From positions 3,264,001-3,328,000 of the forward strand of contig CAXXLZ010000002.1 of the NCBI GenBank assembly GCA_963675595.2: 64,000 nucleotides of DNA, in the 5' to 3' direction. Of this stretch, positions 7,017 through 43,100 are shown one piece after another (within the stretch, counting starts at the first letter, position 1; the number at the start of each line of letters is the position of its first letter). Made by a program: the position numbers and the translations under genes. The notes below the pieces were generated by a model. The model saw only the letters and a program-made list of their open reading frames with translations. It searched no databases and was not told the origin of the DNA. Origin of the DNA: Thermodesulfobacteriota bacterium. GTDB taxonomy: Bacteria; Desulfobacterota; Desulfarculia; JACQYL01.

Positions 7017-7093
<77 letters not shown>

Positions 7094-7143: not shown

Positions 7144-9024
<1,881 letters not shown>

Positions 9025-24106: not shown

Positions 24107-27100
24107 CTATGATTTCTTCGGATTCATCCGCCATTTGGTGTTCCATTTTTCCACGTCGCCCCGAGTCAGAATATTCACTTTGCCCCCTTGGAATTCCTCC
24201 CGCACCTCCCCCATCGTTTCTTCCATATCGCCTTCAATCTCCAAGGCCGTGATTTTCACGGCTTCAAGCAGGTCCCGGTCCGCATCCCACATCCCTCTCG
24301 CCTGCGCCTCCAACAGACGTCGGGTGATCTCCTCAAGGGCGTAAGGATTGTGAGACCGCAACCAGGTCAGGTTTTCCTTATTCAGGATGTATTTCTCCAC
24401 CACGCCGTCGAAGAGCCGCTTGTCCACCTGTTCCGTAACGGCGCTCCATTTGAAGAGATTTCGGACGCCGGAAGAAACGAGTTCGGCTCCTTGGCCGCCG
24501 TGCTCTTTCAGGCCCTCGATCCAGCGGTCGTTCATGAGCTTGGCGCGAAACGCGGCTTCGACGGCGCTTTTCGTATCGTGGATTTTGTTCTTTCCTTGGG
24601 GGGAGGCATCCGCCCAATACAGCTTGGCGGCTTTGCCTCCCAGCGACTTGGCCGCCATGGATACGGCGCCTTGGCAGGTGGCATAGCATCCTTCATCCAA
24701 AAGGTCGTATTCCGGAGAATATTGCTTCATGTAGGAGACGGATACGTTCTTGAGGTGCCCGGCGTAAAGATCATAAGCTTCTACCCCGAAAGCGTCCGGT
24801 TGGCCGGAAGCGCCGTAGGCATGGCCTCCCCAGTTCACGTAGATTTCGGTCAGGTCCTTATGGTCGTTCCAGGCCGAGGCGTCGATGGCCAAATCCACCC
24901 CGATGCCGTAGGAGCCCGGAGGTGAGGAGAATACGCGAAAACCGGCCAGGCGACGAATTCGATCCATGGAATGGGAGGCCCCCATGGTTTCCCGGAGTTC
25001 CCTCATCCGTTCATCGGTATGTTTGCGGACGAAGTTCCACTCGTGGGGCTCGTCGAGGTCCCCGACGAACAGGACCGCGTGATCGAGGATATCGATGAAC
25101 GTGGGCAGCATGTCTCGCACGATTCCGCTTGTCTGGATCAGCACGTCGATTCTGGGACGGGAGATTGCGCTTCCCGTGTGCAGCAGGACCTTGAGCTCGT
25201 CCAGAGGGATGGGCTCCGTCTTCTTGAATCGGCCGTCGGAAGCCCACACGGGTTTCACGCCCATAAGGTACAGAATCTGGCACAGCACCTCGCCGTCGGA
25301 TTTGAAGCCGTCAATGCTCCAGAGGTTGACGGCCACGCTTTCAGGAAAGGTTTTCTCTTCTGTCAGATACTTCGTCAGAAGCGCATCCGCCCTCTGCTTG
25401 CCGATTTCCCAGGCAGCGGGGGTGGGCAGGGCACCGATATCCACGGCGAAGAAGTTACGGTCCGTGGGCAATGCACGGGTCTTTCCCATGAGCAAGGAGC
25501 CGGCCGGTCCCGGTTCGACGTATTTCCCGTCGAGGGCTCGGAGCAGCTGTGGAATCTCGTTCGAACACTCGACAATCCTCTTGTACAGCTCTCTTCCCCA
25601 GGCCTGTATTATGAGAATCTCGGAATCTCTTCCAAGTTGGGACGGCACGTCGCCCGAAAGGATTCGTCCGATTACCCGGCTTTGCACCGCAAAATCATCG
25701 GACCTCGCGTCCTCGAGTTTGCTCACCACACGGCTCAGCTCCGGCAGACCCTCGGGACTCATTCTCAGCATGCCGGTCAGCATCTGAGCAATCTGTGTTG
25801 CGTTCGGTGAGCGACCGAAGACGTGCAATCCCTCGGGAGCGAAGGAATTTCTTGTCAACTCGATCTGTCGAATCCAAAGATCGGCTTTTTCCGGGAGATC
25901 GTCCATGGGGTCGATTTCATCCGTGAACTTCAGCTTTTTCAGAAGGGGTGCCAGGCGTTCCTTGAGGACCTCGGCTCTATCCTCTTCACGGAAGCGGGCG
26001 GCTTTTTGATATTGTTCGAGCAGGTCCGCGAGTTCCTCCGTTTCCCGGTCCGTTTCCGCAGGTCGATAGACGGGGGTCAGATGGTCCACGATCACCGCCC
26101 GGCCCCGTCGCTTGGCCATCAGCCCTTCACCCGGGACATCCATGCAATAGGGATAGATATTGGGCAGGTCCCCAATGGAGATTTCGGGAAAACAGGCGTC
26201 CGACAGGCCGGCGCTCTTGCCCGGCAGGAATTCGAGCGCGCCGTGCGCGCCGAAATGCACCACGGCGTCCGAGTTTTCCTGAATGTACTTATACGCGGCG
26301 ATCCAGTGATGGGGAGGAGCCAGTTGGGGGTCATGAAGGATACGGCAGACCTCGCCGGTGCATTTGGGACCGTAGCAACCGCGCTTGGGTTGTACCATGA
26401 TACGGATGTTGCCGTACTTCAACCCGGTGACCAGGACGTATTCCTTTCCACCTTCGTTCCACGCCATGCCTTGGCCGGGAAAGGCTCCCCAATCTTGAAG
26501 CAGTCGGTCCCGAGCCGAGTCCGGGAGTTCGTCCAGGTAGGACTCATACTCTTCCGCGGAAGTCTTGTGCAGCACTCCGCCTTTGGCGACGATCTCGTCC
26601 ACCGTGGTCCATCGGAATTCCGATATGGCCTTGCGAGTCATGATGGTTCTCTTGAGGCCCTCGCCGGTCAAAGGAACGTCCTCCAGGAAGTAGCCTCGGT
26701 CCTTCATGGCTTTGAGAACCGAAGCGAGGCTTTCGAAGGTGTCCAGACCCACGGCGGAACCGATGGTGGCTTCCACGCTTCTGCATGGAGCGTTGTGCAG
26801 GACGAAGGTGATGCGTTTTTCTTCATTGGGGAGCTTTCGCAATCGAATCCACTTCTCAAGGCGTCGGCAAAGCGATTCCATTCGTTCCTTCACCGCGACA
26901 TATTCTCCTTGGGGGGTGGGCAATCCGGCGGGCGCCTCCGGTTGGACGGCCGTCAAGGTCGGTTCGATGGCTCCGGCTAATTCAGGTTGAACCAGGGAGT
27001 ACACCATGCTGCTCGGCGGCAGGCCGGCCGGGTCCTCGCGCCATGCCCGTTCGCTTCTGTTGTACAGTCGTATGAGCTGAAACAACGGGACATCCAGCTC

Positions 27101-27865
27101 TCTCAGGAGGGACACGTCCTCGGTTTTCGACAGGAGCCGGCCCGCCGTCAAATTCAGTATCGCCTCAGCGGATCCGCTTCGTTGGAAATATTTGAGCCAG
27201 GGATAACGCCTTTCTTTGGGGAGGGCGCCGTCGTACATGCCTTCACAGAACACGCAGATGGGAAGGAATCCGTGGTTTTCAAGGGTCCGGATCAGGGCGT
27301 CGATTTCTCGAGTCTGCCGTTCCACGAGTTGGCCGTAGTAGAAAAGGATTCCCACGACGGATCTACGGCCACGCGGAGGGTGCTCTTGGTCATACCAATC
27401 GAAATAGTCCGAAGTGGATTCAAAGAATTGGGGGGCGTCGGTATGGTAGATTCCGTCCGTGCGCACGCTTTGGACCGCACCCACGGCCCCTTGGAAGCCT
27501 GCGTGCGAGGCGAGGAAGCGAATGCCGTGTCCGAAATTGTCCGCCGAAAGCCTACTCAGATACGCGCGCATTCTTTCCGCATCGTCGCGGGACAGCGTTG
27601 TAAAATCTTTCGGCATTTCGATGCCGTAACCGAAACGAACGGGCACCGCCGTCATCAGTTCGAGGAGTACGTCGAATCCGGGAATTTCTCGGGACAGATC
27701 GGCCGCAACACAATCGACCCCGCCTTCCAACAGGGCCCGGCGAACCGCTTCCCACCCATACTGGCTGAAGGCTCGAAGTTCGATGCCCTCCGAAGAGAGC
27801 GATTCCGACACCGGTTCCCATAAGCGTCGATTGAACATATGGCCTTGAATCAGCAGGATTCTCAT
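24107..27865 (-). CDS. cobN: CobN/BchH-family chelatase large subunit, paralog A
   Basis: QPELAGAIEP, HFGAHGALEFLPGK, AKRRGRAVIVDHLTP, LPTDRNFF, RPRIDV...SGIVRD and PPGSYGIGV. Confidence 0.88.
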   Translation of the reverse strand: MRILLIQGHMFNRRLWEPVSESLSSEGIELRAFSQYGWEAVRRALLEGGVDCVAADLSREIPGFDVLLELMTAVPVRFGYGIEMPKDFTTLSRDDAERMRAYLSRLSADNFGHGIRFLASHAGFQGAVGAVQSVRTDGIYHTDAPQFFESTSDYFDWYDQEHPPRGRRSVVGILFYYGQLVERQTREIDALIRTLENHGFLPICVFCEGMYDGALPKERRYPWLKYFQRSGSAEAILNLTAGRLLSKTEDVSLLRELDVPLFQLIRLYNRSERAWREDPAGLPPSSMVYSLVQPELAGAIEPTLTAVQPEAPAGLPTPQGEYVAVKERMESLCRRLEKWIRLRKLPNEEKRITFVLHNAPCRSVEATIGSAVGLDTFESLASVLKAMKDRGYFLEDVPLTGEGLKRTIMTRKAISEFRWTTVDEIVAKGGVLHKTSAEEYESYLDELPDSARDRLLQDWGAFPGQGMAWNEGGKEYVLVTGLKYGNIRIMVQPKRGCYGPKCTGEVCRILHDPQLAPPHHWIAAYKYIQENSDAVVHFGAHGALEFLPGKSAGLSDACFPEISIGDLPNIYPYCMDVPGEGLMAKRRGRAVIVDHLTPVYRPAETDRETEELADLLEQYQKAARFREEDRAEVLKERLAPLLKKLKFTDEIDPMDDLPEKADLWIRQIELTRNSFAPEGLHVFGRSPNATQIAQMLTGMLRMSPEGLPELSRVVSKLEDARSDDFAVQSRVIGRILSGDVPSQLGRDSEILIIQAWGRELYKRIVECSNEIPQLLRALDGKYVEPGPAGSLLMGKTRALPTDRNFFAVDIGALPTPAAWEIGKQRADALLTKYLTEEKTFPESVAVNLWSIDGFKSDGEVLCQILYLMGVKPVWASDGRFKKTEPIPLDELKVLLHTGSAISRPRIDVLIQTSGIVRDMLPTFIDILDHAVLFVGDLDEPHEWNFVRKHTDERMRELRETMGASHSMDRIRRLAGFRVFSSPPGSYGIGVDLAIDASAWNDHKDLTEIYVNWGGHAYGASGQPDAFGVEAYDLYAGHLKNVSVSYMKQYSPEYDLLDEGCYATCQGAVSMAAKSLGGKAAKLYWADASPQGKNKIHDTKSAVEAAFRAKLMNDRWIEGLKEHGGQGAELVSSGVRNLFKWSAVTEQVDKRLFDGVVEKYILNKENLTWLRSHNPYALEEITRRLLEAQARGMWDADRDLLEAVKITALEIEGDMEETMGEVREEFQGGKVNILTRGDVEKWNTKWRMNPKKS

Positions 27866-27922
27866 GTTCGTCTCCCCGATTGCGGCATAGGACGACCGGA
27901 GTCGTCTCGTCGGCGAATCAAT

Positions 27923-27954
27923 AAAAAAACCCCCTGTCTCGAAAAGACAGGGGG
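27923..27954 (-). terminator. Attenuator terminator of riboswitch 2
   Basis: Minus-strand CCCCCTGTCT-tttcg-AGACAGGGGG followed by T7. Confidence 0.75.
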
Positions 27955-28053
27955 ATTGCACCCGGTTTCCTTCATCCCCTAAATAGATGAGGGATCTCTC
28001 GGATCCTCAAGAGGCAACGGGAGCCTCACGCTCCCTCACTCTCATCTTATGAA

Positions 28054-28213
28054 ACCGGCAGGTCTTCTGGCTCTCGGATCACCCTAATCCCCGCGCCTTC
28101 CCAACGGATTTTCTCCGACAGTGGCCTCGTGCGGGTTTCGTTCCCGATCACAGCGGCGGGACCGCGACGAATTCACATCGTCTTCCCTATTGTTCCTTCT
28201 TAGAAGGACCGAT
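28054..28213 (-). promoter_or_regulatory. Cobalamin (B12) riboswitch 2
   Basis: Minus strand: AATAGGGAA...GCGGTCCCGCCGCTGTG...GCCACTG...GGGAAGG...AGCCAGAAGACCTGCC. Confidence 0.93.
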
Positions 28214-28372
28214 TCCGTTGAAAGCTCTATCCAAGAGCGCCGGCGGAGTCAAGTACAATCGCACGAACCGTTTGAAGACCCCGCTTCCCCGGACTATGTT
28301 TCACACGGGAGTCAGGATTAACTATGAATATCGAACTGTTATGGCCTCTTTCGGGAGCGGGGGATTTGTTGG

Positions 28373-28400
28373 TTGACAGCTTTCCCTTTTTCGATATGAT
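28373..28400 (+). promoter_or_regulatory. Sigma70 promoter upstream of riboswitch 3
   Basis: TTGACA, 16-nt spacer, TATGAT. Confidence 0.65.
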
Positions 28401-28412
28401 TGTCTTTACGTT

Positions 28413-28566
28413 AACAGGTGCTCATCCGAGCTGAAAAGGGAATCCCGTGAAAATCGGGAGCGGTCCCGCCGCTGTGATCGGGGATGCGTCCGCTAATGCC
28501 ACTGTCCGGAAAGGACGGGAAGGCGCGGTCGCCGAACAGACCCGAGAGCCAGAAGACCTGCCTGTT
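28413..28566 (+). promoter_or_regulatory. Cobalamin (B12) riboswitch 3
   Basis: AACAGGTGC...AAAAGGGAA...GCGGTCCCGCCGCTGTG...GCCACTG...GGGAAGG...AGCCAGAAGACCTGCCTGTT. Confidence 0.95.
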
Positions 28567-28631
28567 GGACCTTCTATAGCAACCCCGCGGTAAGGGTTTC
28601 GTAGTATGACGACGGTTTTTCGGGCAGCTTG

Positions 28632-28733: not shown

Positions 28734-29525
28734 ATGAAGTGCGGGAGCGTGCGGATGTCCGGCATCCCTCCGGGGGAGGCGACATTTCAAGGGGCGGTGC
28801 TCCTTTATCTTTTCGGGTTCTTCGCGTCGCTTTTCAGAGCTCGGCGCTTGAGCCGGATATCGATCGGTCTGGGATTGTGCTCGAACCTGCTCTCCGCTGG
28901 GGCGAGATATTACAATGCCTGGCCCCTCCTTCCTCTCTTTCAGGGACCTTTTTTCCTTCCGCTGTTTTTCGGTGTATGCTGCACATCCCGCTTCCGGGAC
29001 GACCACCCGAAGGTCCCGCTCTTCAGCGGGGCGTTGGCCTTGATGGGCTTGACGGCCCTCTTCTTTCCCAATGATTTCTATGTTCCGTTCCTTAAATCGA
29101 AGACGATCTTTTCCCACCTGTATTTCGTCTTCGGCGTGGTGGGCCGAGCCTGCTTTTTCATGAGCGCCCTCTGGGCCGTTCTGTTCCTCATCGACAACAA
29201 GAATCAAAACAAAGGCGGAATGGGTCCCGTTTACACTTGGGTTGTCCGGGGATTTGTTTTCTGGACCCTTTCCATGTTTTCAGCGGAAGCCTGGTCGTAC
29301 TTGAGTACCGGATACCCGGTGGTCTGGGAAGATGCTTCCATGACCACGACCATTGCGGCCTGGTTCTATTATGCCTGCTTTCTTCACCTGCATCTTTACG
29401 GGGTCTGGAGCCTGAAGTTCAGGTCCATCTTCGCGGCAATAGGCGCCGTTGTCGTGTTCACGTTTACCAGTTATCCGGAGCTTGGGGCGTTCCGGATTCC
29501 CGAATTCAGATGGGCTCGGTTTTGA
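28734..29525 (+). CDS. CcsA/ResC-like (cytochrome c assembly family) membrane protein
   Basis: About 8 TM segments; GFVFWTLSMFSAEAWSYLSTGYPVVWED (degenerate WWD motif) and W..YACFLHLH. Confidence 0.7.
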   Translation: MKCGSVRMSGIPPGEATFQGAVLLYLFGFFASLFRARRLSRISIGLGLCSNLLSAGARYYNAWPLLPLFQGPFFLPLFFGVCCTSRFRDDHPKVPLFSGALALMGLTALFFPNDFYVPFLKSKTIFSHLYFVFGVVGRACFFMSALWAVLFLIDNKNQNKGGMGPVYTWVVRGFVFWTLSMFSAEAWSYLSTGYPVVWEDASMTTTIAAWFYYACFLHLHLYGVWSLKFRSIFAAIGAVVVFTFTSYPELGAFRIPEFRWARF

Positions 29526-29820
29526 CTCGTATTTGGGACTTCTGGTGCAGCGTCCGACTGACGGTGCTGTTGCTTTTTTTGATTATGATCGATCTTTGGA
29601 TCGGTTATTTCGTGCTCGAATCTCACAAGAGTTATTTTGTTCCGCTTAATCAACTCGGATTGACGGAGTGGGCCGGTACGTATGGTATTACGCATCCCTT
29701 GATCACGAGTTGGTTTTTTGTTCTTGTTTTTCTACTGGCCTCTTTGGGGTTAAATACGTTTGTTTGCACCACCGACAAGCTGATTTCATTACTTCGTGCA
29801 TATTCATCGTTTCCAAGCTT

Positions 29821-31696
29821 GATGCCGTCGTAAGAACCCCCCTTTACGAACAGGGCTGTTTTTTGGAGCATTGGAAGTTCAAGCGGCCATTGCAACACTG
29901 CCAAGGTTACTGTCATCGTGACATAGGCTACAAAGACGACGGAAATTATCGTTGCTGCCTCCCTCTATCGAGTTGGAAAGGGCCTTCTTGGCCTTATCAA
30001 GGCGGCTCTGGACGAACCTCTTGATGTTGATGGCCAGGGCCTTCATGAAAACAGATAAGGTGACCCGTTTTTTGCCTCGGGTCCACGATCGTTTCAATCC
30101 CGTGACCCGATCCGCTTCGGAGATGGTGGCCTCGATGCCGGACCGGATTTTGTAGCGTTCTTTGAAATCATGGCTTTCCTGCTGTAGTCTGCGCTTGGAG
30201 GTCGCCATGTCCTTGCGCTTGTACTTCAGTCGATAATTTCCGCCCTTGATCCGTTTTACCGGACAGATGGGGAGAAATTCGCATAGGAGACAGTGCTCGC
30301 GGGAAAACACGGCTTCCACCGCTTTGCCGCGGTCAACGATCTTGCATTCAAGTGGCGCGTGCCCCCGGATACAGTAAACGACCTGGGTGCAGTCCTCGTT
30401 CGTTTCAAAGTCACTCAACTGCATCTTATTGAGATCCGGCGCTTTTCCGCAAGTCACCGGAGCGGTAAGCTCGACTCCGTGCTCGTGAGCTTGAAGGATG
30501 TTCTCGCCGCTGCCGTAGCCTGCGTCGGCGAACAACTCTTCGGGTTTGCGGCCCGTTTCCTCCAGGCGTTCGATAACGGGCATCACGTCTTTCTGGTCGC
30601 TGTCATAGGAAGGGGCCACGTCCACATCGGTGATCACCTGGAAGGGATTTTCCTTCACGCAGGTCTCCGTGAGGGAAGCCTTATATCCTTTGCCCTTGCG
30701 CCCATAGGTGGCGTCGGGATCCGAAGGATTCTGCAGGGAGTCCGCAGGGATTTCCTTGGGCTTCTCGAGTTCTGTTTTGTCGGGATCTCCCTCGGTGAAA
30801 CGGCATTGCTCCGACAGTAGTCGGGCCATCAGCCGGTATTCTTTCATTCGGCTGATTTCCGGATGACCTCGGAAGCGGTCCACCAGGTCGGCGAGATGGC
30901 GGGCGGACTTGTCCAGACGACGCTTGGCCCGCGATGATTTTGCATCGGCAAAATAGCCTGCGCGCTTCAAGTAGGCCTTGTCGTAAAGTCGGGGCAGTTT
31001 CTCATACAACTTGGGATGTTTCTTATGGAGCCGTTTCAAGAACGCCTCGATGGTGCGCGTAAAGAGCCCCAGACGGCTCAGATGAGCCATGTTGGAAGTG
31101 ATCTGTGTGGAGTCCAACCGCTGTTTGTCCGTGCTAAGGGCCGCCGTCTCGATGATGGCGTCCGTGATTCCGGTAAAGAGGCTCCGCGCTTGCTTGTTGT
31201 CGGTAATCAAGGTCCGGAAATTGTGCAGGGTCTTCTGGCAGACGTGAGATTCAAAGGCGTTGATGTTGAAGGCATATTGCCAACGCAGATCGAAGTCCAG
31301 AGCGCCCAAGACTTCCGCATCGGTCAGGCTGTTCATTTCCTTCAAAACACACGCTCCGACAAGGATGGCCACGGGTCTGTTGGGCCTGCCGTTGTCCTCA
31401 CAGTAGAAAGGCCGGAAAGACTCCTCATCGATCATGGGAAGCACCAGGCGCCGGAACGGACCGGCCCACGTCTTCTCCAACGCCTCGATCCTGTCTGCGG
31501 GAAGGCAAATATCGTGGTCGAAAATGGTCTTTTGCGTTCTCTTAGGCCGAAACAAAACAACCCCCCTAAGGACCATATTATTAATCAAGTCAGATACTTA
31601 TCATACAGGACCCAAAAGAAAGGTCAACCCATAAATGCCATTTTTATTCATATTTTCAACTAGATACCTTTACGGAGAGGTTTTTACGAACTCATC
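29821..31696 (-). mobile_element. IS1182-like insertion sequence (1876 bp) with AAGCTT direct repeats
   Basis: Imperfect IRs GATGCCGTCGTAAGAACC / GGTTTTTACGAACTCATC; AAGCTT at 29815-29820 and 31697-31702. Confidence 0.88.
29879..31588 (-). CDS. DDE transposase (IS1182/IS5-like, DUF772 plus DDE)
   Basis: GRPNRP, RLDSTQI, LQNPSDPDATY, GYK, ADAGYGS and YKIRSGIEATISE; start uncertain. Confidence 0.88.
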   Translation of the reverse strand: MINNMVLRGVVLFRPKRTQKTIFDHDICLPADRIEALEKTWAGPFRRLVLPMIDEESFRPFYCEDNGRPNRPVAILVGACVLKEMNSLTDAEVLGALDFDLRWQYAFNINAFESHVCQKTLHNFRTLITDNKQARSLFTGITDAIIETAALSTDKQRLDSTQITSNMAHLSRLGLFTRTIEAFLKRLHKKHPKLYEKLPRLYDKAYLKRAGYFADAKSSRAKRRLDKSARHLADLVDRFRGHPEISRMKEYRLMARLLSEQCRFTEGDPDKTELEKPKEIPADSLQNPSDPDATYGRKGKGYKASLTETCVKENPFQVITDVDVAPSYDSDQKDVMPVIERLEETGRKPEELFADAGYGSGENILQAHEHGVELTAPVTCGKAPDLNKMQLSDFETNEDCTQVVYCIRGHAPLECKIVDRGKAVEAVFSREHCLLCEFLPICPVKRIKGGNYRLKYKRKDMATSKRRLQQESHDFKERYKIRSGIEATISEADRVTGLKRSWTRGKKRVTLSVFMKALAINIKRFVQSRLDKAKKALSNSIEGGSNDNFRRLCSLCHDDSNLGSVAMAA

Positions 31697-32209
31697 AAGC
31701 TTGTATAGGTTTGTGTTCAAGTTGTCTCCACACTTAATGCATTATGCCGTATTGGTAATTTTATTGGGTTTTCTCGTGAGCTACCTGACGTCGTCCGTTT
31801 ATCCGGGAAAGATATTGCTTCCGAATACACCAATCAATCTGCCCGGATCGTCCTTTTCCATGGTCATGAAAGCAATGGACGTCGAGTTCTACAACGGGTC
31901 TCGGTTGGGGTTTTTAGAGGATCAAGCCATGGAAGTGACCGCGCGGGTCGACTTTCGGGATCAGGAAGGTCGGCCGTTAAAGGAAGCCGTTCTGGCCGTC
32001 AATCGACCGGTGTGGTTTCAAGGTATGAGCATTCACATCAAAGACTTCGCTCCGCGATCCAAAAGAGGAATGCCCCAGCGGGACCACGTCGCGGTGATTA
32101 TCAAACGGGATCGGGGTATTTGGCTCTACATCGCCGGCACGGTGCTGTTTACCTTGGGATTGCTCATGTATTTCCATGAATGGGTTCGAAAAAGGCAAGG
32201 GAAGTGGTG

Positions 32210-33337
32210 ATGAAGAGACTCAACAGAATGATCGGATGGTGCTTGCCCGTCGTCTGCCTGACGTTGCTGACGCTGTGCGGTTGCCTGCAAGGTCGGCAGG
32301 AAGGCGAAGGCTTCATCAACGTGGGGGAATTTACAGTCAAATCCCTCGACAACGGCTTGAAAGAACTGAGGGACGGACAGGGGCGCCGACTGGTTCTCGT
32401 ACCCAGGGGTCAACAGGCCCCCCAAGGCTTTCGCAAGGAGGAGATCGTTCCCATACCCGTTCGTCGCGTGGTTGCCTATTCCACTCAGGAAGTGGCCATG
32501 TTTCGAGCTTTGGGAGTGTTGGATACGCTCGTGGGCGTCACCACCAGGAAATGCGATTGGACGATGCGAGAAGTGGCTCGCGGGATGGAGGAAGGGAGAA
32601 TCTCCTACCTCGGCGATTCCACTTCGGTGGACCTGGAGCGTTTGAAAGCCGCTCGTCCCGAAGTCGTTTTCACTTGGGACCAGAGTGTTGTCCCCATGCT
32701 CGAAACCATGAACATTCCAGCGGTGATCACCTACACCGGCAGGGCCATGGACCTCGAGACGCGAGTTCGATTCATCCAATTCCTCGCGCCGTTTTTCGGA
32801 AAAGAACGGGAAGCCGATCGTTTCGTAAAAACCGTTTTGGAGACCATTGCTGAGATTCGCCGAAAAACGGCCGACGTCAAACACAGGCCCAAAGTGATTT
32901 GGGGGGATATCTACGAAAAACGGGTGATGGTGGAGCCGGGGAATTCATGGGTGGCGGAAATGATCAAGCTCGCCGGAGGAGACTATTTGTTCGAGGACAT
33001 CGGCGGCAGCCATTGACTGGAAATCACACTGGAAAGGTTTCTTTCCAGCGGAACCCGGGCGGATGTCTTCTTCACCTATCGAACGCCCCAATTCGGAGTG
33101 TCGTCCAAGGACGCCATCATGAGCATCAATCCCTTGATCAGAAATATCGCGCCCCTCAACCCCGCGGGTGAAACCTTTTCACCCTATCCGCTGTACGCGC
33201 AGTCCGGAGACGAACTGGCCGACGTCATCCGGGAAGTGGCTTCGATCCTTCATCCGGAGCTTTTCCGGCGGGAAAGAATCAAGTACTTCAGACGGCTTCC
33301 GCAGGAAGACCCCATGGATCGGACGGCGAGGAGATAA
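32210..33337 (+). CDS. ABC substrate-binding lipoprotein (BtuF/FepB class), putative selenoprotein with Sec at TGA 33014-33016
   Basis: Lipobox LTLCG-C; PVRRVV, VDLERLKAARPEVV and LAGGDYLF motifs; frame continues after TGA (LEITLERF...ILHPELF) to TAA 33337, which overlaps the permease ATG; SECIS-like hairpin downstream. Confidence 0.85.
33029..33048 (+). promoter_or_regulatory. Putative bacterial SECIS element
   Basis: Perfect 8-bp stem CTGGAAAG/CTTTCCAG with G-first loop GTTT, beginning after a 12-nt spacer from the in-frame TGA. Confidence 0.72.
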
Positions 33338-34359
33338 TGTCTGTAGGGAAAATCGACACAAACCACGGGATCGTGTTTTCAGCCTCTCTCGTCCTGCTGG
33401 TATCCGCGTTTGTCGTCAACGTGCTCATGGGGTCCGTGGAAATCTCTTTGGGACGGCTGGTGGAAATCGTGACTTCTTTTTCCACCGACGGCACCGAAGG
33501 ATTCATTGTTTGGAATATCCGAATGCCCCGGGCCGTGGCCGCGGCGCTGGGCGGTGCGTATCTCTCCGTGGCGGGTCTGCTGCTTCAGGTGTACTTCCGC
33601 AATCCCGTGGTGGGTCCGTTCATTTTGGGCATCAGTCACGGAGCGACTCTCACCGTATCGGTGGTCATGCTCACGAGTTACGGTTTGGGGCTGCCCCGTG
33701 TCAGTCCGTTCATGAGCACGATCGCGGCCTTCATCGGGGCCTACGGGACCATGGCGGTGGTGATCGGTATCGCGAGCAGACTCAGAAGCGGCATTACGTT
33801 GCTCATCACGGGACTGATGATCGGCTATTTGTGCATGGCCGTCACGAACGTGCTCATCGCTTTCGCCGAGCAGGAGAAGATCAAAGGATTCGTGCTCTGG
33901 CAATTGGGAAGTTTCGCGGGTTTCAAATGGATTGAAATCGAAGTCCTGGTCTACGTGGGGTGCTCGATCCTCACCGGCGTCTATCTTCTGAGCAAGCCCC
34001 TGAACGCTTTCTTGCTGGGAGAGGAATACGCGTCCACCATGGGGGTCAATATTCGTTTATTCCGGATTCTGATTCTTCTTTGCGCCTGCGCCCTGGCCGG
34101 CATGGTGACCTCCGTGGCGGGACCGGTGGCCTTCGTGGGACTTGCGGTGCCTCATCTGACGCGACTTTGCTTCGGCACGTCGGACAACCGCATTCTGATC
34201 CCCGGGGCCGTTCTCATGGGCGGCGCCGTGACCTGTCTTTGCGACCTCATCGCCAGACTGGTCTTCGCTCCCGTGGAACTACCCATCAGCGCCATTACGG
34301 CTCTGTTCGGGGCTCCCATCGTCATCAGCCTGCTCCTCAAGAAAGGAGCCTACATATGA
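33337..34359 (+). CDS. FecCD/BtuC-family ABC permease
   Basis: IRMPRA, QVYFRNP..GPFILGI, LNAFLLGEEYASTMGV and GPVAFVGLAVPHLTR. Confidence 0.92.
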   Translation: MSVGKIDTNHGIVFSASLVLLVSAFVVNVLMGSVEISLGRLVEIVTSFSTDGTEGFIVWNIRMPRAVAAALGGAYLSVAGLLLQVYFRNPVVGPFILGISHGATLTVSVVMLTSYGLGLPRVSPFMSTIAAFIGAYGTMAVVIGIASRLRSGITLLITGLMIGYLCMAVTNVLIAFAEQEKIKGFVLWQLGSFAGFKWIEIEVLVYVGCSILTGVYLLSKPLNAFLLGEEYASTMGVNIRLFRILILLCACALAGMVTSVAGPVAFVGLAVPHLTRLCFGTSDNRILIPGAVLMGGAVTCLCDLIARLVFAPVELPISAITALFGAPIVISLLLKKGAYI

Positions 34360-35597
34360 CCCGTCCCGTTCCAAGAACTCGGGTCATTGAAACGCGCAAC
34401 CTGGCCGTGGGTTACGGACCAAAGGTCGTTCTCGACCATTTGAACGTTCATGTGGACGAAGGCAGTTTCGTAAGTCTCCTGGGACCCAACGGAGCGGGGA
34501 AGACCACGTTTCTCCGGACTCTGGCGCGCCTACTCCCGGTAATCAAAGGCAGCGTGTTCATTCGGGGAAAGGAGTTGGAGCTCTACTCGGCATCCGAACT
34601 GGCCAGGCGCCTTTCCGTTGTGCTCACGAACCGGGTGTCCCCCGGACTGTTCACCGCCTTTGAATTCGCGGCGCTCGGCCGCTATCCGCACACGGGGTTT
34701 TTGGGAAAGTTGAGCGACGCGGACCGAGACGTCACCCGGCATTGCCTGAAACTCGTTCATGCGGAAGACTTGGCGGAGCGGCGTCTGGATACCCTCAGCG
34801 ACGGTGAGCGGCAGAAAATCCTGGTGGCCCGCGCACTGGCCCAGGAGCCCAAGATCATCCTGCTGGACGAACCCACCCTGCATCTGGACCTGAAACACCG
34901 GATCGAATTGATGGCCATCCTGCAGCGCCTTTGCCGGGATGAGGGTATCTCGGTGGTGGCCTCGCTTCACGACGTTGATATCGCCGCGAAAGTTTCCGAC
35001 CAAGTGGGATTGATCAAAGGAGGAACCTTGATCCGGTGGGGTGCTCCGGAAGATGTTCTTCAGGAAGACGCGGTAGCGTCTTTGTACGACTTCAACGGCG
35101 CAAGTTTCAATCGCCGGCTGGGGAGCATCGAACTAAAGGGCGGCGGGGGGCGACAACGGGTTTGCGTGATCGCGGGAATGGGCAGCGGCGCGGTCTTGTA
35201 TCGTCTCTTGGCCAAACGGGGATACGTCTTGTCCACGGGAGTGCTCCCCTCCAACGACGTGGATGCCTACGTGGCCGCTTCCCTTAGCGCGGAGTGCGTG
35301 ACCAACTCGCCCATGGAAGCGATTTCCGATGAAGCGTTCCGGAAAACGAAGGAGCATATTCTGGAAGCCGATTTCGTTATCGACGCCGGCTTCGAGGTGG
35401 GCTCTTTGAACGAAAGAAACGTGGAACTGCTTCGGTTCGCCATGGAACAGAACAAGCCGGTTTACGGGCGATTGCCCGAGGGCGGCGTCGTTCCGCATCG
35501 GAACGGGGTGAGCTCCCGCATACCGTTCTATGCTTCGGAGCATGAGTTGATTGAAGAGGTGGAGGCGGCTCTTGCCCGAAGAAGGCCGGAGGCATGA
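34356..35597 (+). CDS. FepC/BtuD-family ABC ATP-binding protein with C-terminal extension
   Basis: GPNGAGKTT, LSDGERQ and LLDEPT; extra ~150-aa C-terminal domain. Confidence 0.92.
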   Translation: MTRPVPRTRVIETRNLAVGYGPKVVLDHLNVHVDEGSFVSLLGPNGAGKTTFLRTLARLLPVIKGSVFIRGKELELYSASELARRLSVVLTNRVSPGLFTAFEFAALGRYPHTGFLGKLSDADRDVTRHCLKLVHAEDLAERRLDTLSDGERQKILVARALAQEPKIILLDEPTLHLDLKHRIELMAILQRLCRDEGISVVASLHDVDIAAKVSDQVGLIKGGTLIRWGAPEDVLQEDAVASLYDFNGASFNRRLGSIELKGGGGRQRVCVIAGMGSGAVLYRLLAKRGYVLSTGVLPSNDVDAYVAASLSAECVTNSPMEAISDEAFRKTKEHILEADFVIDAGFEVGSLNERNVELLRFAMEQNKPVYGRLPEGGVVPHRNGVSSRIPFYASEHELIEEVEAALARRRPEA

Positions 35598-35679
35598 TGC
35601 GGTTTGCCTTTTTCTGGACGTCTCCCGATGCCGGCTGTTCGGTGCTCGGTGGAGGCTTTCGACATTGCAGGGAAGAGTG

Positions 35680-37689
35680 ATGAACGGAAATCAGGGTTTT
35701 CCCTTTTCGGCCATTGTCGGCCAGGAGAATTATAAGCTCGCCCTGATCCTCAATGCGGTCAACCCTCGGGTGGGGGGCGTGCTCATCCGAGGGGAAAAGG
35801 GCACCGCCAAGTCAACGGCGGTCAGGGCTCTGGCGGACCTGCTTCCGCGGGTCGAGGTGGTGGAAGGGTGCGCTTATGCGTGCGATCCCGGACGGCCCGA
35901 GGAACTCTGCGAATCCTGCGAAAGGCTGGGAGGGTCGATGCCGACGAGGCTGAAACGAAGGCCGGTGGTGACGCTGCCTCTGAATGCCACGGAGGATCGC
36001 GTCGCCGGGGGTATCGACTTCGATTCGGCCGTCAGGCAGGGCGTGCGGGTGCTTCAGCCCGGGCTGCTGGCCAGGGCGCACCGGGGGATTCTTTACGTGG
36101 ATGAAGTGAACCTGCTGGACGATCATCTGGTGGACATCATCCTGGATGCGGCGGCTTCCGGAGAAAACAGGATCGAAAGGGAGGGCGTCTCCCATCGCCA
36201 TCCGTCCCGTTTCATTCTGGTGGGAACCATGAATCCCGAGGAAGGCGAACTGCGTCCTCAACTGCTCGACCGTTTCGGCCTCTGCGTGGAAGTGACCGGG
36301 GAGCAAGACATCGAGAAACGTATGGAACTCATGAAACTCCGGGAGGAATTCGATTCCGATCCGAAGGGGTTCGTCCAGCGTTTCGCCGAGGAAAACAGGG
36401 AGATCGCCGCCCGCATTGATCGGGCCTGTGCCGCGCTGGAAACCGTAAGAATGGCCAAGCACCTCCGTTCCTTCATCGGTGAGCTCTGTGGGGAAAACCA
36501 TGTGGCCGGGCATCGCGCGGATTTGGTCGTCGAACAGGCGGCCAGGGCTTTGGCTGCTTATATGGGGCGCGGCGAAGTCACCGTGGAGGACATTCAGGAA
36601 GTGGCGCCCATGGCCCTGATGCATCGAAAGCGGGATGTCGCCCCACCACCTCCGCCTCCTCCGCCCGAGCCCGAAGACCGGCCTCCGGACCAAGGGGAAG
36701 CCGAGTCCGGGAAGGAACAGCAAGAGGAGCCGTCTGAAAAGACACCGTCGGAGGAGGAGAATGAAGCGCTTCCGCCCCAAGACTTGCCTCCGCCTGATCC
36801 GGGCGAGAAAGAGCGGGACCGAGAGGGGGAACAAGACGTTTTGGAGCGGATTTTTGAGGTGGGGGCCACCTTCAAGGTGAGAAGCTTCCAGGCGCGAAAG
36901 GATCGCCTCCTGCGGCGAGGTTCCGGCAGACGTTCCCGTTCCCGGGTATCGCAGAAACAGGGTCGCTACGTAAGAAGCACGAACCGGGAAATCAACGGAG
37001 ACATCGCATTGGACGCCACGCTTCGGGCGGCGGCGCCCCACCAGCTCAGGCGCAGAGGAGAAAGCGATCTGGCGGTATGCCTGCGCCCGGATGACATACG
37101 GGAAAAGATTCGGGAAAAACGTATCGGCAATTTCCTGCTCTTTCTGGTGGACGCCAGCGGTTCCATGGGGGCCAGAGGCCGGATGGCCGCATCCAAGGGA
37201 GCCATCATGTCCTTGCTGCTGGATGCTTATCAGAAGCGGGACCAGGTGGCCATGGTTTCATTCAGAAAGCGGGAAGCGGTGCTGAACCTACCTCCCACCT
37301 CCTCCGTTGAAATGGCCGGAAAGCTCCTGGAAGAAATGCCCGTGGGGGGGCGGACTCCTTTGGCTGCGGGCCTGGTAAAGGCATACGAAGTCCTGAGAAG
37401 CCGGCTTCTGAAAGACCCGTCGTCCAGACCTTTTGTAATCGTCATCACCGACGGAAAAGCCAATGCGGGGCTCGGTGAAGGGAGCCCGTTGGATGAAGCC
37501 TTCGCTTTGGCGAGCCGATTGGCGCTGGATGAAAGGCTCCATTTCATCGTGGTCGATACGGAAGAGGAAAACGTGGTTTCCTTCGGCCTTGCCCGCAAAC
37601 TGGCCATGATTCTGAGAGGGAGCTATTTCAGGATCGAAGACCTCAAAGCGGAGAACCTGGTGGAAATCATCAAAGGAAAGGCTGCATGA
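35680..37689 (+). CDS. chlD: Chelatase subunit D (AAA+, Pro/acidic linker, VWA)
   Basis: [52 protein letters not shown] linker and VDASGSM MIDAS motif. Confidence 0.88.
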
Positions 37690-38732
37690 AGAAGGGACCC
37701 ATTTACCCGTTTACCGCCATTGTAGGCCAGGAAAAGATGAAGCTGGCCCTTATTCTCAATGTGATCAATCCGACCCTGTCGGGAGTGCTGATTCGCGGCG
37801 AAAAGGGCACGGCCAAGTCCACCGCGGTGCGCGCACTGGCCGAGATTCTGCCGGAAATCCAGGTGGTCGAGAACAATCCGTTTCAATTGTCTCCCGAAGA
37901 GGTTCGCGAACAGGAAGGGGACCTGTTCCAAGTGGCCGGGCGCGAGCAACCGGCGTCCGACGGAAGACCCGCAACGATCCGACGGAAGGTCAGGGTGGTG
38001 GAACTACCCGTGGGCGCCACGGAAGACCGCGTTGTCGGCACCCTGGACCTGGAACACGCCCTCAAGAAGGGAGAGAAGCGGATCGAACCGGGTATCCTGG
38101 CCTCCGCTCACCGTGGGATTCTTTATGTGGACGAAGTGAACCTGTTGGACGATCACGTGGTGGACGTCTTGCTGGATTCGGCGGCCATGGGAGTCAACAC
38201 CATCGAGCGCGAGGGCGTTTCTTTTTCGCATCCGGCTCGATTCACATTGGTCGGCACCATGAATCCCGAAGAAGGCGAACTGCGGCCCCAGCTTCTGGAC
38301 CGTTTCGGCTTGTGCGTCCATATCGAGGGCATCCACGAGCTGGAAAGTCGCGTGGAAATCATGGAACGTCGCGCCGCATTCGAGGAAGACCCGGAACGAT
38401 TCGTGGAAAGATGGGCTCCGGCCTCACGGGAACTCACCGAAAGAATTCAACGGGCCGGCGAACTTTATCCTCAGGTGGAAATGGATCGGTCTCATTTGAG
38501 TGAAATCGCCCGCTACTGCTTGGACGTGGGCGTGGACGGTCATCGGGGCGATATCGTCATTCTCAAGACGTCCAAGACCCTGGCTGCTTATCACGGAAGG
38601 ACCCGGGTGGAAGAGGAGGACATCGGGCAGGCCGCGGAACTCGCCTTGCCCCATCGGATTCGCCGTCAACCGCTCCAGGACGTCGTGTTCGACGTGCGCG
38701 GCATGCAGCCCGCTGGGGGAGGCGTCGTGTGA
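37686..38732 (+). CDS. chlI: Chelatase subunit I (AAA+ ATPase)
   Basis: [36 protein letters not shown] and DGHRGD. Confidence 0.9.
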
Positions 38733-38879
38733 CAGGGCGTTGAAAGACACGACCTGCGGCGTTGCGTTGCATGTCGTCGTTCTTACGTAGGCTGCAGCAC
38801 CTGCGTTTTTGCGGCCCGGCGGGCATGTATTGGGAACGGCAGGCCTAAAGCGAACCTTCGACCGTGGTAATCGTTGAAG

Positions 38880-39998
38880 ATGAAGGGCGACACGCGCAAA
38901 GAGGAATTCGCACCCCGGTATCTGGTGTTGTTCGTAACCACGGCGTGTAATCTGCAATGTCCCTATTGCTACGCAGACGACCTACGGGCAAAGAAGCCGA
39001 TGCCGTGGGAGGTGGCGGAGGCCGCTCTCAACCGGGTTGCGCACGGCGGCTTTCCGTTTCATGTGCAGTTGACCGGCGGTGAACCCACGTTGGAACCGGT
39101 TCTGGTCGAGAAGATCGCGTCTTGGTTGCGTTCCCGGCGACTACCGGCAAAAGTGGCTCTTCAAACGAACGGCACATGCTTGGACGAAGGGCTGGTCCGG
39201 ATTCTTCAAGAAAGAGAAGTCCAAATCGGTGTAAGTATCGACGGGTCTCCCTCGGTCCACGATCGCATTAGAGGCGGCGTTGTCGGGACGCTGAAAGGAC
39301 TGGACCTGCTGAGTCGCATGGGGGTCCCTTTCCGCACGACAACGGTGGTCACCCAAAGGAATGCGGCCGTCCTGGACCAGCCGGCGCTGATGCTCGCACG
39401 ATATCCGAATTTGCAGGGTATGGCTCTGGACTTGCCGGTACGTAAAGGGCGCATGATTTCAAGGGGCGAAGCGCTCTGTTGCGATCCGGAGTCTCTGGCT
39501 GCCGGCGTTGCCAAGCTGGTGAAGACCATCGACAGACTGAACGGGACCCGCCGACACCCTATTTCGCTGAGAGAATGGGAGAGGCTGCGTTCGTCGAGAA
39601 GAGAGGCGGCCCCAACGGACTATTGCCATGCATGCCGGGGCGAAAGCATGGCGGTTTTGCCGGACGGGTCCGTTTATCCCTGTTCCCAGACAGCCGGGGA
39701 TCCGGCGCTGCAATCGGGCCGGATCGACCGATGGGAATCGGTCCGACCGCGGATGCTCGGGAGGCGCAGTCTCCGTGAGGTTGCCGGGGAGGATTGCAGG
39801 ACCTGTATTGCGGAGCCTTTCTGTCCCGATGATTGTCCAAGCCGATTGCGCTACAACGACCCGCCGACCATCAAATCGGCGTGCGTTCTCTATCGCACGA
39901 TTGTCTCGTTGAGGGCCGGCGGAAGAGACGACGGCGAAGCGTGGACTTCGAAGGACGGTTCGTTCCGACGGGCGGCCCTGGATAAGGGCGACGGGTGA
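38880..39998 (+). CDS. Radical SAM protein with SPASM domain
   Basis: CNLQCPYC, TGGEP, QTNG and SIDG; SPASM cysteines CHAC...YPC...CRTC...C...C. Confidence 0.88.
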   Translation: MKGDTRKEEFAPRYLVLFVTTACNLQCPYCYADDLRAKKPMPWEVAEAALNRVAHGGFPFHVQLTGGEPTLEPVLVEKIASWLRSRRLPAKVALQTNGTCLDEGLVRILQEREVQIGVSIDGSPSVHDRIRGGVVGTLKGLDLLSRMGVPFRTTTVVTQRNAAVLDQPALMLARYPNLQGMALDLPVRKGRMISRGEALCCDPESLAAGVAKLVKTIDRLNGTRRHPISLREWERLRSSRREAAPTDYCHACRGESMAVLPDGSVYPCSQTAGDPALQSGRIDRWESVRPRMLGRRSLREVAGEDCRTCIAEPFCPDDCPSRLRYNDPPTIKSACVLYRTIVSLRAGGRDDGEAWTSKDGSFRRAALDKGDG

Positions 39999-40111
39999 TG
40001 AGTCGGGAGAGTCCGCAACCGTTCGTCGAACGTTCGTTCTTCCTCGACTTCACAGCGAAGAAGGCGCCGTCGCGGTGAGTCGACTCCTCAAACCAATGTG
40101 AGGTGTCTCCT

Positions 40112-43100
40112 ATGAATCCTTACAGATTGTGCTACTTTTCGGCGACCGCTCTCGAGATTCCGTCCCTGAGAAGAGGACTGGACCTGTATCTGACGGATGG
40201 AGGGCGGGTCCGGGTCACCGCTCGCACCAACAACCAGCTTTTCGATGAAGCGCGGATCAAGGCTTTTGTCAAAGACGCCATGAAATCGGATGCGGTGATC
40301 GTCGTGCTGCACGGCGGCAAGGCGTCATGCGCGGCTTTCGACGCGCTGATAGCGGAATTTTCGGACCCCAAACGCAACGGAAGCAAAGCGCCTTACCTGC
40401 ACATTAAAGCGGATGTCGGCGATGAGGAAGGATTGTTCCTGGCCGGGGAGTATTCCGCGGAATTCGGTACCGAGAACTGGGACATCATATCCAGCTACGT
40501 TTCTTACGGCGGCCCGGTGAACTTTCGCCAGCTTTTCAGGTTCCTCGGCAACATCGTCGCGGACGACGACGTCGGTTGCGTGCCTCCCGAGCCGACGCCG
40601 GGAGAAGGGATTTATCATCCCGATGTCGCGGGCGTTCCTTCTTTGGACGAGTACCTGAAAGCCAAAGTGGATCCCTCGAAAATCACCGTGGGACTCTGGT
40701 TCTATCACTCCTATTGGATCAACAACAACCTCGAGCATATCAATGCCTTGATCAAGGAAGTCGAGAGCCGGGGGGCCAATGTCATCGCCGTTTTTCACCG
40801 AAGGTTCAAGGATGAGTCCTTGGGCACTCGAGGGGCCGATTACGTGGTGGATCATTTTTTTATGGAAAACGGGACGCCCCGAATCGATGCACTCATCAAT
40901 CCCATGAATTTTTCCCTTTCTCTTTTCTCACCGGAGTATGAAGGGTTGCTGGAGCGCCTGGATGTGCCCGTGATCCAGGCCCTGACCACGAGTCAACCCT
41001 ACGAGGTCTGGAAGGCCGGCGTCCAGGGCATGTCGAGCATGGAAGTCTCTTACGCGGCGGCTCAGCCCGAATTCGACGGAGCGTTGATCTCCGTGCCGGT
41101 GAGCACGCGGGAAGAAAATGAGACGGACCCGTTCACCGGCGCCCTGTTGTCCCGTATGGTTCCCATTCCCGATAGGGTTCGAAAGGTGGTTTCTCTGGCG
41201 CTCAACTGGGCCAAACTGAGAAAGAAAAGTCCGGACGGAAAGAAGATCGCCGTTATTTTTCACAACTATCCCCCCAGGAACGACCGCATCGGGTGCGCCG
41301 CAGGCCTGGACAGCTTCGAGAGCGTCAAACTGCTCCTGGATCGTATGAAGGAACAGGGGTACGTGGTTGAACAAACCTACGAGAACGGCGATGAATTGGC
41401 GCAAGAGATGGTCGAACGAATGACCTGCGACCAAAGATGGCTCACACCGGAACGGATGTCGGAAAAGGCGGAGGCGCGTGCCGGTCGAGAAGGTTATCTT
41501 CCTTGGCATGCGGCTCTTCCCGACGGAGTCCGATCGAAAATGCGGGAGGATTGGGGGGAGGTCCCCGGGGATCTCTTCGTCTACCGGGATGAAATGATGT
41601 TTCCGGGCATGATCAACGGGAACATTTTTCTTACCATTCAGCCTCCCAGGGGATACCTGGAAAACGTGGATAAGATTTATCATGACCTCTACCTCTCCCC
41701 GCCTCACCACTACCTGGCTCAGTATCGTTGGATCAGGGACGTATTCCGGGCGGACGCCGTGATGCATGTGGGCAAGCACGGGTCTCTGGAATGGCTTCCG
41801 GGCAAAGCGTTGGGCTTGAGCGAGGAGTGCTTTCCCGATCTCTCCATCATGGATTTGCCCAACGTTTATCCCTACATCATCAACGATCCGAGCGAAGGAA
41901 CTCAGGCCAAGCGCCGTTCCTATTGCTGTATCATCGACCACCTGACCCCGGTCTTTTCCAATGCCGATCTCTACGAGGACCTGACTCAGGTGGAATCCGC
42001 GTTGAAGGATTATGAAGACGCCGTTCGGGAGAACCCCGGCAAGCTCGACGTTTTGCGTCCCATGCTCTGGGAAGCCGTGGTCAAAGCGGATCTGGACAAG
42101 GATTTGGAAATGAACGAGGAATCCGCTTTCGCGGATTTCGAGAAGTTCCGGGAACAACTGCACGGTTACCTATCCGAACTGCGCGATACCATGATCAACG
42201 ACGGACTTCACATCATGGGAACGGCCCCTCGAGATGACCGCCTGGTGGAATTCCTCACGCAACTCACCCGACTCCCCAATGGAGCCGTCCCTTCCTTGAG
42301 GGAGGCTCTTGTCGCATATAAAGGATATGACTACGACGAGTTGCTCGAGAACCGGGGAAGCCGGTTCGCCGGTTCCGGCGATAAGACCGGAGGCATGTTG
42401 ATCGGTGAGGTCCATGAGCTGGCTCTGGAGCTGGTGGGCGGGCTGTCTTCCGAAGATTACGATCCGGAGCGGGCTTCCGCGGCGGTGGAGTCGGTATTGG
42501 GGAGGAGCGTTCCGGAAGTCCTGGAAATCGCGGACTACATTTGCCGGAATCTCGTTCCCGACATTCGTCGCGTGTCGGATGAGATCGATGCGAGTCTGCG
42601 GGCTTTCCAGGGTCGGTTCGTGCCGCCGGGACCTTCGGGCGCTCCCACCAGGGGGCAGGCGGACATTCTTCCCACGGGCCGCAATTTCTTTTCGGTGGAC
42701 CCCTCCAAGATTCCGACTCCCGGGGCCTGGGAGGTGGGCATAAGGCTCGGCGACGCTTTGATCGATCGATGCTTGCAGGAAAACGGAGAATATCCCGAAG
42801 GGATCGGCATTGTTTTGTGGGGCGGGGCCACCATGCGCTCCAAGGGAGACGATCTTGCCGAAATTCTCTACCTCATGGGGGTGAAGCCCGTATGGCAAAA
42901 GGGGAGCGGTCGGGTGACCGGGGTTGAGGTGATTCCCGTGTCGGAACTCAAACGCCCCAGATTGGATGTGACGCCTCGCATTTCGGGTTTTTTTCGAGAC
43001 GCGTTTCCCAACCTGGTGGAATTGATGGACGATGCGGTGCGCATGGTCGCCGCTCTCAAAGAACCTTTCGAATGCAACATGCTTCGGAGGAACGTGCTTC

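Follow-up and report, generated by a model that had tools for sequence, protein, structure and literature searches.

A UGA codon probably read as selenocysteine in a substrate-binding lipoprotein of a B12-riboswitch operon in a Thermodesulfobacteriota bacterium

Does the in-frame TGA that divides a gene for an ATP-binding cassette (ABC) substrate-binding lipoprotein end its translation, or is it read as selenocysteine (Sec)? The gene lies at 32210-33337 on the forward strand of a 64,000-nt stretch of contig CAXXLZ010000002.1 (positions 3,264,001 to 3,328,000; assembly GCA_963675595.2) of a Thermodesulfobacteriota bacterium; this whole stretch is referred to below as the window. The list of open reading frames (ORFs) shows two of them here in one frame, 32180-33016 and 33098-33337, and a sequence-only reading of the window had proposed that they form one gene split by a single in-frame TGA at codon 269, that its TAA overlaps the ATG of the following permease gene, and that a hairpin follows the TGA after a 12-nt spacer. 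All three statements held when the frame was read again. Translation of 32210-33337 with TGA as Sec (U) yields 375 residues, with the TGA at 33014-33016 as the sole internal stop, in the context GGSH-U-LEITLE; the spacer occupies 33017-33028 and the hairpin 33029-33048. At its 3' end the gene runs into the next one, its TAA (33335-33337) sharing a base with the permease ATG (33337-33339); at its 5' end, the ATG (32210) overlaps the stop codon, TGA, of the ResB-like ORF upstream; and the permease TGA (34357-34359) overlaps the ATG of the ATPase gene (34356-34358). The stop/start overlaps at both of its ends indicate that the full-length binding-protein frame is translationally coupled on either side. 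Public gene calls, by comparison, end the protein at 268 residues (P0002, the window protein's own database entry). As argued below, the best explanation of the locus as a whole, to which we give a probability of about 0.88, is that it encodes a full-length, 375-residue Sec-containing lipoprotein of a BtuCD-like importer.

The residue found at position 269 in related proteins carries much of this argument. A protein database search returned 431 relatives, of which the best 120 were listed and 30 (the top ranks and named proteins) were aligned. The three best relatives are each 268 residues long: the window's own call, P0003 (77% identity) and P0004 (74%), the last two both ending exactly before the TGA position. 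In all 28 full-length homologues chosen from the 120 listed, column 269 is occupied by Cys. The same alternation was seen at the level of codons. In a search of 95 genomes from the same class, the best 30 loci comprised 24 with TGC or TGT, five with TGA (the window's own and those of genomes G042, G090, G056 and G068) and a single distant paralogue with Thr. Contigs of one genome per species were also scanned, using peptide patterns that exclude the site, and gave 81 matches in 80 loci, which divided into 10 TGA, 47 TGC and 24 TGT. When the loci were pooled, Cys stood at column 269 in 91/91 distinct Cys-form rows, and TGA was present in 14 distinct rows. The protein family is tightly conserved, with Cys at position 269 in most members (among them forms from Desulfobulbus, Desulfatibacillum and Desulfosarcina) and, as judged from the codons, Sec in a minority. 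A search of the source genome with this query found no paralogue, the gene itself being the single match. Tandem binding-protein genes were observed in a Desulfobulbus metagenome-assembled genome (locus L120; 5320-6465 and 6678-7733), the second copy having Cys-Cys at 268-269.

One base change from the Cys codons of the homologues would suffice to create the TGA, and an error of sequencing or assembly for TGC or TGT might therefore be considered, although nothing specific points to one. No difference at 33014-33016 was seen in contigs from the runs of four studies, one of which may be the source sample. Of these contigs, X3 record 10 and X5 record 12 extend over all 701 nt compared and have 3 and 8 differences outside the codon, and X10 record 7 covers the 701 nt with no differences. 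With these contigs in agreement at the codon, such an error is most improbable.

The TGA could also be a nonsense mutation in a pseudogene, within an operon that is decaying after the insertion of a mobile element. The gene immediately upstream, which is ResB-like, is indeed split by an IS1182-family insertion sequence (IS) element at 29814-31703 (minus strand), and the public calls of 268 residues fit a truncated product. The element has 25-nt inverted repeats at 29814-29838 and 31679-31703 and a transposase gene at 29879-31588 (minus strand) with DDE transposase Pfam domains, which matches NF033551 at 197 bits (below the cut-off of 270). Twenty-one full-length copies are listed at 100% identity in the genome, the window copy included, and this identity implies that the insertion into the ResB-like gene is recent. 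The TGA, in contrast, is common to diverged lineages and must accordingly be old: it recurs in 13 other distinct homologues (43-57% identity) and at the ends of the two 268-residue database proteins. The 106 codons that follow it are conserved like those before it, the identity of the 13 other Sec forms to the window protein being 43-54% after the TGA and 45-57% before, and they contain no further stop or frameshift. A hairpin is kept together with the TGA, as described below. The Sec codon and its hairpin are ancestral and intact despite the IS insertion, and a decaying gene is a very improbable account of the locus.

The history of the site was followed in a quick maximum-likelihood tree (LG+G4; support by the Shimodaira-Hasegawa-like approximate likelihood ratio test, SH-aLRT, only) of 106 distinct rows, left after removal of duplicates and of hits that covered less than 300 residues of the query. 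The tree needs at least five changes between Sec and Cys, of which at least four are forced by its starred branches. One clade of 23 rows (SH-aLRT 98) combines 13 Sec forms with 10 Cys forms.

A second line of evidence is the hairpin, which resembles a bacterial Sec insertion sequence (SECIS). It extends over 33027-33050 on the forward strand and consists of a perfect 8-bp stem, CTGGAAAG-GTTT-CTTTCCAG at 33029-33048 (stem 33029-33036/33041-33048, loop GUUU at 33037-33040), with an outer C-G pair at 33027/33050. After removal of identical segments, the region was compared in 14 TGA forms, 90 Cys forms and one Thr form. In each of the 14 TGA forms a hairpin stands at an equal distance from the codon, with six or more of the eight in-register pairs in every one and seven or more in 13 of them, and their loop columns read GTTT or GTTC, G coming first throughout. 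Across these forms 94.4% of cells are paired, compared to 37-70% when the partner is slid, and pair 27-36 is A-U in nine sequences and G-C in five. The median fold energy is -11.7 kcal/mol for the TGA forms and -4.6 kcal/mol for the Cys forms (Mann-Whitney p = 3e-7, a value that is overstated since the rows are related). In L122, which alone among the Sec forms falls inside the large Cys clade, the register of the hairpin is shifted. The geometry of the binding-protein hairpin matches that of the hairpins in the same genome's SelD and PrxU genes, which have a spacer of 11-12 nt, a stem of 6-7 bp and a loop of 4-5 nt starting with G.

These two genes also bear on the ability of the organism to decode Sec. 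The sequence-only reading had taken the PrxU gene in the window as a sign of this ability, and the gene at 48231-48821 (minus strand) indeed matches NF040737 at 345.7 bits (cut-off 270), with a TGA at 48675-48677 that takes the peroxidatic position in the context FTFV-U-PTE; the match begins at position 35 of the profile, and the true start may be further upstream. Profile matches above the family cut-offs were obtained in the genome for selB (404 bits), selA (621 bits), selD (386 bits) and tRNA-Sec (77 bits, anticodon TCA). The selD gene (L129; G000:C2:3335545-3336462) lies 7.5 kb past the right end of the window and itself contains an in-frame TGA, in the context KAAG-U-ASKIPPG, with a SECIS-type hairpin. 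The wider proposal of that reading, a Sec codon in a BtuF/FepB-type lipoprotein of a B12-riboswitch operon, is upheld by the comparative data and by the match of the riboswitch to RF00174 (see below). The checks that it had suggested came out the same way: homologues carry Cys at the column and several lineages carry TGA with a conserved hairpin, contigs from four studies share the TGA, and selA, selB, selD and tRNA-Sec(TCA) are all found in the genome.

With the machinery and the hairpin both present, it remains to be asked how often the ribosome might simply stop. UGA is a stop by default, and Sec insertion is usually inefficient, so that some short product is to be expected anyway; under a plain-termination account the 268-residue protein would be the product, with at most occasional near-cognate read-through. 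In the predicted structure, however, that product would lose a third of the C-lobe (strands 270-272, 286-288 and 321-325, and helices 274-347), and the part lost is conserved. Moreover, the start of the permease is coupled to the distal TAA and not to the UGA. Termination as the normal outcome is thus as improbable as a decayed gene, and the pseudogene, sequencing-error and plain-termination readings are all very unlikely. UGA269 is very probably decoded as Sec, a judgement drawn from comparison of sequences. As we picture it, SelB with Sec-tRNA(UCA) would recognise the hairpin 12 nt 3' of UGA269; the ribosome would insert Sec, run on to the TAA at 33335-33337 and couple into the overlapping permease start, and the product would bind the substrate for a BtuCD-like ABC importer.

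Several observations weigh against this interpretation. Taken on its own, the 71-nt fold of the window sequence is unremarkable (z = -1.51; 18/200 shuffles fold equally well), and perfect hairpins with an 8-bp stem and a 4-nt loop occur five times in the 64-kb window, as against 0.9 in block shuffles. A hairpin in one sequence is not decisive, and the weight of the case for Sec therefore comes from the comparative data. Here too there are reservations. The hairpin falls in a conserved coding stretch, LERF(L/F)SS, so that part of its sequence is dictated by the protein, and the covariation amounts to one clearly compensatory pair. Comparable hairpins, with at least seven pairs, are reached by 5/90 Cys forms (L032, L043, L045, L046 and L068). 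These are mostly close kin of Sec forms, and the first loop base of L043 (from genome G085) is A in place of G; the five have the appearance of Sec forms recently converted to Cys, with the SECIS left behind as a fossil. The Sec forms are clustered, with few independent Sec/Cys events, in a tree made by a quick method. The IS insertion upstream may silence the module in this strain, and no RNA data covering the gene were found among the public runs listed for the stretch.

The protein has the features of an ABC importer's binding subunit. Cys25 (codon 32282-32284), in a lipobox-like LCGC, is invariant in a 31-row alignment. Pfam PF01497 (Peripla_BP_2) covers residues 87-292, that is, across the TGA, at 67 bits against a cut-off of 27.5. 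An AlphaFold2 model built from the 31-row alignment has a mean pLDDT (predicted local distance difference test score) of 86.7 and a long helix at 199-220, and a Foldseek search with it gave 176 PDB matches at E <= 0.001. The top matches are all class-III periplasmic binding proteins, the best of them including CeuE, RhuT, ShuT, YiuA and BtuF (E about 1e-13 to 1e-11). The predicted fold is that of a two-lobe class III (PF01497) binding protein with a connecting helix. Matches by sequence were far weaker. A hidden Markov model search of PDB sequences gave remote matches only, and in NCBIfam r20 just IsdE (TIGR03659, 24.4 bits against a cut-off of 298.65) and SstD (17 bits) appeared at E <= 0.01, both far below their cut-offs; with such a score, assignment as the heme-binding protein IsdE was rejected. 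Ahead of the Pfam domain, residues 34-80 (32309-32449) form a conserved N-terminal beta-rich segment, IGEF...DGxGRxLxLVPRG, for which there is no family model.

A cobalamin riboswitch at 28399-28579 (forward strand, as are all the genes of the operon), which matches RF00174 at 122.1 bits (gathering threshold 31.5), opens the operon to which the gene belongs. The first gene (28734-29525) encodes a CcsA-like membrane protein of the cytochrome c assembly type; its PF01578 score of 27.8 bits is just below the cut-off of 29.9, and that for TIGR03144 (CcsB), 28.2 bits, is far below. The ResB-like gene interrupted by the IS element comes next. Its 5' part (29501-29813) was recognised by alignment of residues 17-115 of the intact homologue at locus L049 to 29501-29797 (42% identity, E 2e-22), and its 3' part (31689-32210) by PF05140 (36.1 bits) and by alignment of residues 119-281 of the same homologue to 31689-32183. 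The binding-protein gene is followed by a FecCD-family permease gene (33337-34359; PF01032, 253 bits) closest to BtuC, whose best NCBIfam BtuC score (NF003001, 197.5 bits) is below the cut-off, and by a gene for an ABC ATPase with a C-terminal extension (34356-35597), for which the nearest model is that of the corrinoid ABC transporter ATPase (NF007082, 230.7 bits against a cut-off of 537). Further downstream are a ChlD-type chelatase subunit with AAA+ and VWA domains (35551-37689; TIGR02442 'putative cobaltochelatase', 804.8 bits, above the cut-off of 779.45), a ChlI-type AAA+ chelatase subunit (37686-38732; TIGR02030, 432.3 bits against a cut-off of 466.95, and TIGR02442, 479 bits), a radical S-adenosylmethionine (SAM)/SPASM protein (38874-39998; PF04055, 63.4 bits, with weak NCBIfam matches that are all below cut-off) and a CobN-type large chelatase subunit (40103-43885; TIGR02257, 955.7 bits, above the cut-off of 822.05).

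This arrangement was found again at other loci. Gene neighbours were counted in 80 related loci, each neighbour being scored only where the flank was long enough. Upstream of the binding-protein gene, ResB-like and CcsA-like genes were each present in 68/72 loci; the FecCD permease accompanied it in 74/75 and the ATPase in 72/75, while CobN or ChlD was found downstream in 55/65 and a radical SAM protein in 21/65. Eleven related loci were scanned for cobalamin riboswitches, and 8 had one upstream on the same strand. The binding-protein gene belongs to a conserved, riboswitch-controlled module of two small membrane proteins, one CcsA-like and one ResB-like, a BtuCD-like importer and a CobN/ChlD/ChlI-type chelatase.

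Two more cobalamin riboswitches are found near the one that heads the operon, making three within 7.5 kb: 21108-21290 (forward), 28040-28228 (minus) and 28399-28579 (forward). A second CobN gene (24107-27961) and a gene for a Gate-domain protein (23022-24146) belong to a divergent operon headed by the minus-strand riboswitch, and that at 21108-21290 precedes an ORF of 487 codons (21446-22909) in which no Pfam or NCBIfam match was found. Elsewhere in the window, group II intron RNA domains (7229-7515) with a 518-codon ORF (7396-8952) follow directly after a tRNA gene (7017-7090).

What, then, might residue 269 do in a transport protein? In Escherichia coli BtuF the corrinoid cavity is lined by Y50, W66, W85, F162, F168 and W196 (as given in the available part of PMC5269720), and the beta face of the corrin faces the C-lobe (available parts of PMC5269720 and PMC5662663). 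A pairwise alignment anchored on the motifs GG[DE]x[LI]FxD and [IV][ST]xExxL puts residue 269 opposite W196, a weak placement, and hhalign puts the invariant W156 of the family opposite W85. Residue 269 may line the C-lobe wall of the ligand cleft, and its selenolate or thiolate may contact the cargo directly, most likely by coordinating a metal; from sequence and by analogy with BtuF we hold this tentatively, at somewhat less than even odds. The likeliest contact would be with the metal of a corrinoid or another metallo-tetrapyrrole, or with a thiophilic metal chelate, scavenged when B12 is scarce. A direct selenolate-metal contact is favoured because there is a precedent in BtuM, a B12 uptake protein that, in the available part of PMC6072759, binds the corrin cobalt through a cysteine axial ligand. 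BtuM is a functional analogue only: it is an integral membrane protein of unrelated fold, for which that source, as far as available, reports no Sec form. Points against this placement are the low global score (6.5) of the segment that aligns residue 269 with W196 and the limits of the hhalign match to E. coli BtuF, which stops at residue 244, covers the N-lobe only and has a probability of 39.9%.

A more specific proposal is that a tetrapyrrole captured in the periplasm would be held by an axial bond from Sec269 (selenolate, or thiolate in the Cys forms) to its metal, which would be cobalt if the cargo is an incomplete or base-off corrinoid, and that the module would be an uncharacterised pathway. 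This is an unlikely reading as it stands. To our knowledge, no protein selenolate-cobalt bond has been proposed before in a transport protein. If it were true, the module with its radical SAM protein and chelatase would scavenge tetrapyrroles, and re-metallate or remodel them, at low B12 in anaerobes. The sequence-only reading had gone one residue further and suggested a His-Sec pair as the ligand; this suggestion did not stand up. Position 268 is Ser in 11/14 Sec forms and 80/91 Cys forms, and among the 14 Sec rows His268 is found in the window protein alone (in a separate alignment, P0003 and P0004 also end in His268). His268 is not conserved, and a 'His-Sec pair' is consequently no feature of the family.

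Residue 269 might instead be a redox-active selenol or thiol that pairs with a second Cys in a selenylsulfide or disulfide, locking or releasing the cargo, or exchanging thiols with the CcsA/ResB-like proteins. Relatives of CcsA and ResB work alongside thiol-redox steps in cytochrome c maturation, and a second Cys does accompany residue 269, with a position that shifts between clades: Cys181 is present in 78/91 Cys forms and 1/14 Sec forms, Cys50 in 9/14 Sec forms as opposed to 2% of Cys forms, and the window protein has Cys115, within a KCDW motif that P0003 and P0004 share in a separate alignment. Most known selenoproteins, moreover, are redox proteins, as stated in the available text of a 2026 review (PMC13188914). 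The family, however, has no CxxC- or CxxU-type motif, the position of the partner Cys is not fixed (L023, L034 and L042 have neither Cys nor TGA at position 50), and the protein has the fold of a transport binding protein and not that of a thioredoxin. We regard a redox function as rather unlikely, though it deserves to be kept in mind beside direct contact with the cargo.

Is a protein of this kind already known? The first ABC binding proteins reported to contain Sec were SaoB and SaoX (Haft & Gwadz, bioRxiv 10.1101/2022.07.06.499078). As described in the accessible part of that preprint, these resemble the present family in being extracytoplasmic ABC binding proteins that occur in alternative Sec and Cys forms, in that Sec is proposed to contact a metal-containing cargo and not to act in classical redox catalysis, and in being cut short in public annotation. 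According to the same part, SaoB differs in its binding-protein class (structures 3VVE and 4ZV2) and has a CU dipeptide, SaoX has a UxP motif, and both belong to a nine-gene SAO locus with a MerB-like lyase, mostly in Firmicutes. The family described here, in contrast, has the PF01497/class III fold, the motif G-x-S-U-[IL]-E and a B12-riboswitch/CobN module, and is found in Desulfobacterota. Membership in SaoB (NF040727) or SaoX (NF040735) was rejected, there being no match in NCBIfam r20 at E <= 0.01 besides IsdE and SstD, a motif GSH-U-L in the window protein and a CcsA/ResB-BtuCD-CobN neighbourhood.

A second candidate is the catalogued 'cobalamin-binding protein BtuF' selenoprotein (cd01144, CxxU), which is listed in the parts seen of two reviews and the deep-Sep supplement (PMC13188914, PMC9312934, PMC12013277). 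As presented there, it shares with the present family a BtuF-like domain, a single Sec and a computational prediction, and its representative has Sec at about residue 96, in the N-lobe, and begins at the first strand without a signal peptide. In the family described here, compared by eye, Sec269 lies in the C-lobe, an invariant Gly266 stands at -3, and the protein is a lipoprotein. Identity with the CxxU protein was rejected on the Sec site and motif, again as compared by eye; by a rule given in the available review text, different Sec positions mark distinct subfamilies. In the passages and Table S3 seen of Peng et al. 2016, which is cited for the CxxU entry, no BtuF is named.

E. coli BtuF/BtuCD is the closest characterised system in fold (Foldseek E 9e-12 to 1n2z), and is matched here by a BtuC-like permease, a corrinoid-type ATPase and an operon under a B12 riboswitch. 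The differences are considerable. In BtuF, aromatic residues hold the B12 and the cobalt has no ligand from the protein, and the gene is unlinked to CcsA/ResB-like or CobN genes. Sequence similarity to it is marginal (hhalign 40%, N-lobe only), with no NCBIfam BtuF match, and the present protein exceeds it in length by about 110 residues and carries an additional beta domain at its N-terminus (residues 34-80).

In its available part, the 2026 inventory (PMC13188914), which counts 119 families of prokaryotic selenoproteins, has three binding-protein entries, SaoB, SaoX and BtuF CxxU. The BSepDB database, as its paper states in the portion seen, holds only previously reported families, and in its supplement no term for this family was found. 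The family was likewise not found in the parts seen of the 2026 inventory, in NCBIfam r20 or in literature searches, Haft & Tolstoy 2025 (mSystems) being covered only through Table 1 of the review. We conclude that this is a genuine selenoprotein family which is absent from the catalogues searched, although Sec/Cys substrate-binding proteins are already known as a kind.

The finding has a practical side and a biological one. Here and in at least two further public records the annotation is wrong, giving a protein of 268 residues; the same Sec codon goes unrecognised in at least 13 other genomes, and a family model would put these calls right. A Sec residue in a transport binding protein, and not in a redox enzyme, strengthens the small case, made so far by SaoB and SaoX, for a use of Sec in cargo or metal binding. 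The family also draws attention to a widespread, tightly conserved, uncharacterised, B12-regulated module of sulfate reducers and some Betaproteobacteria, in which membrane proteins resembling those of cytochrome c assembly are joined with a BtuCD-like importer and a CobN-type chelatase, and in which the invariant Cys/Sec offers a concrete residue for mutation.

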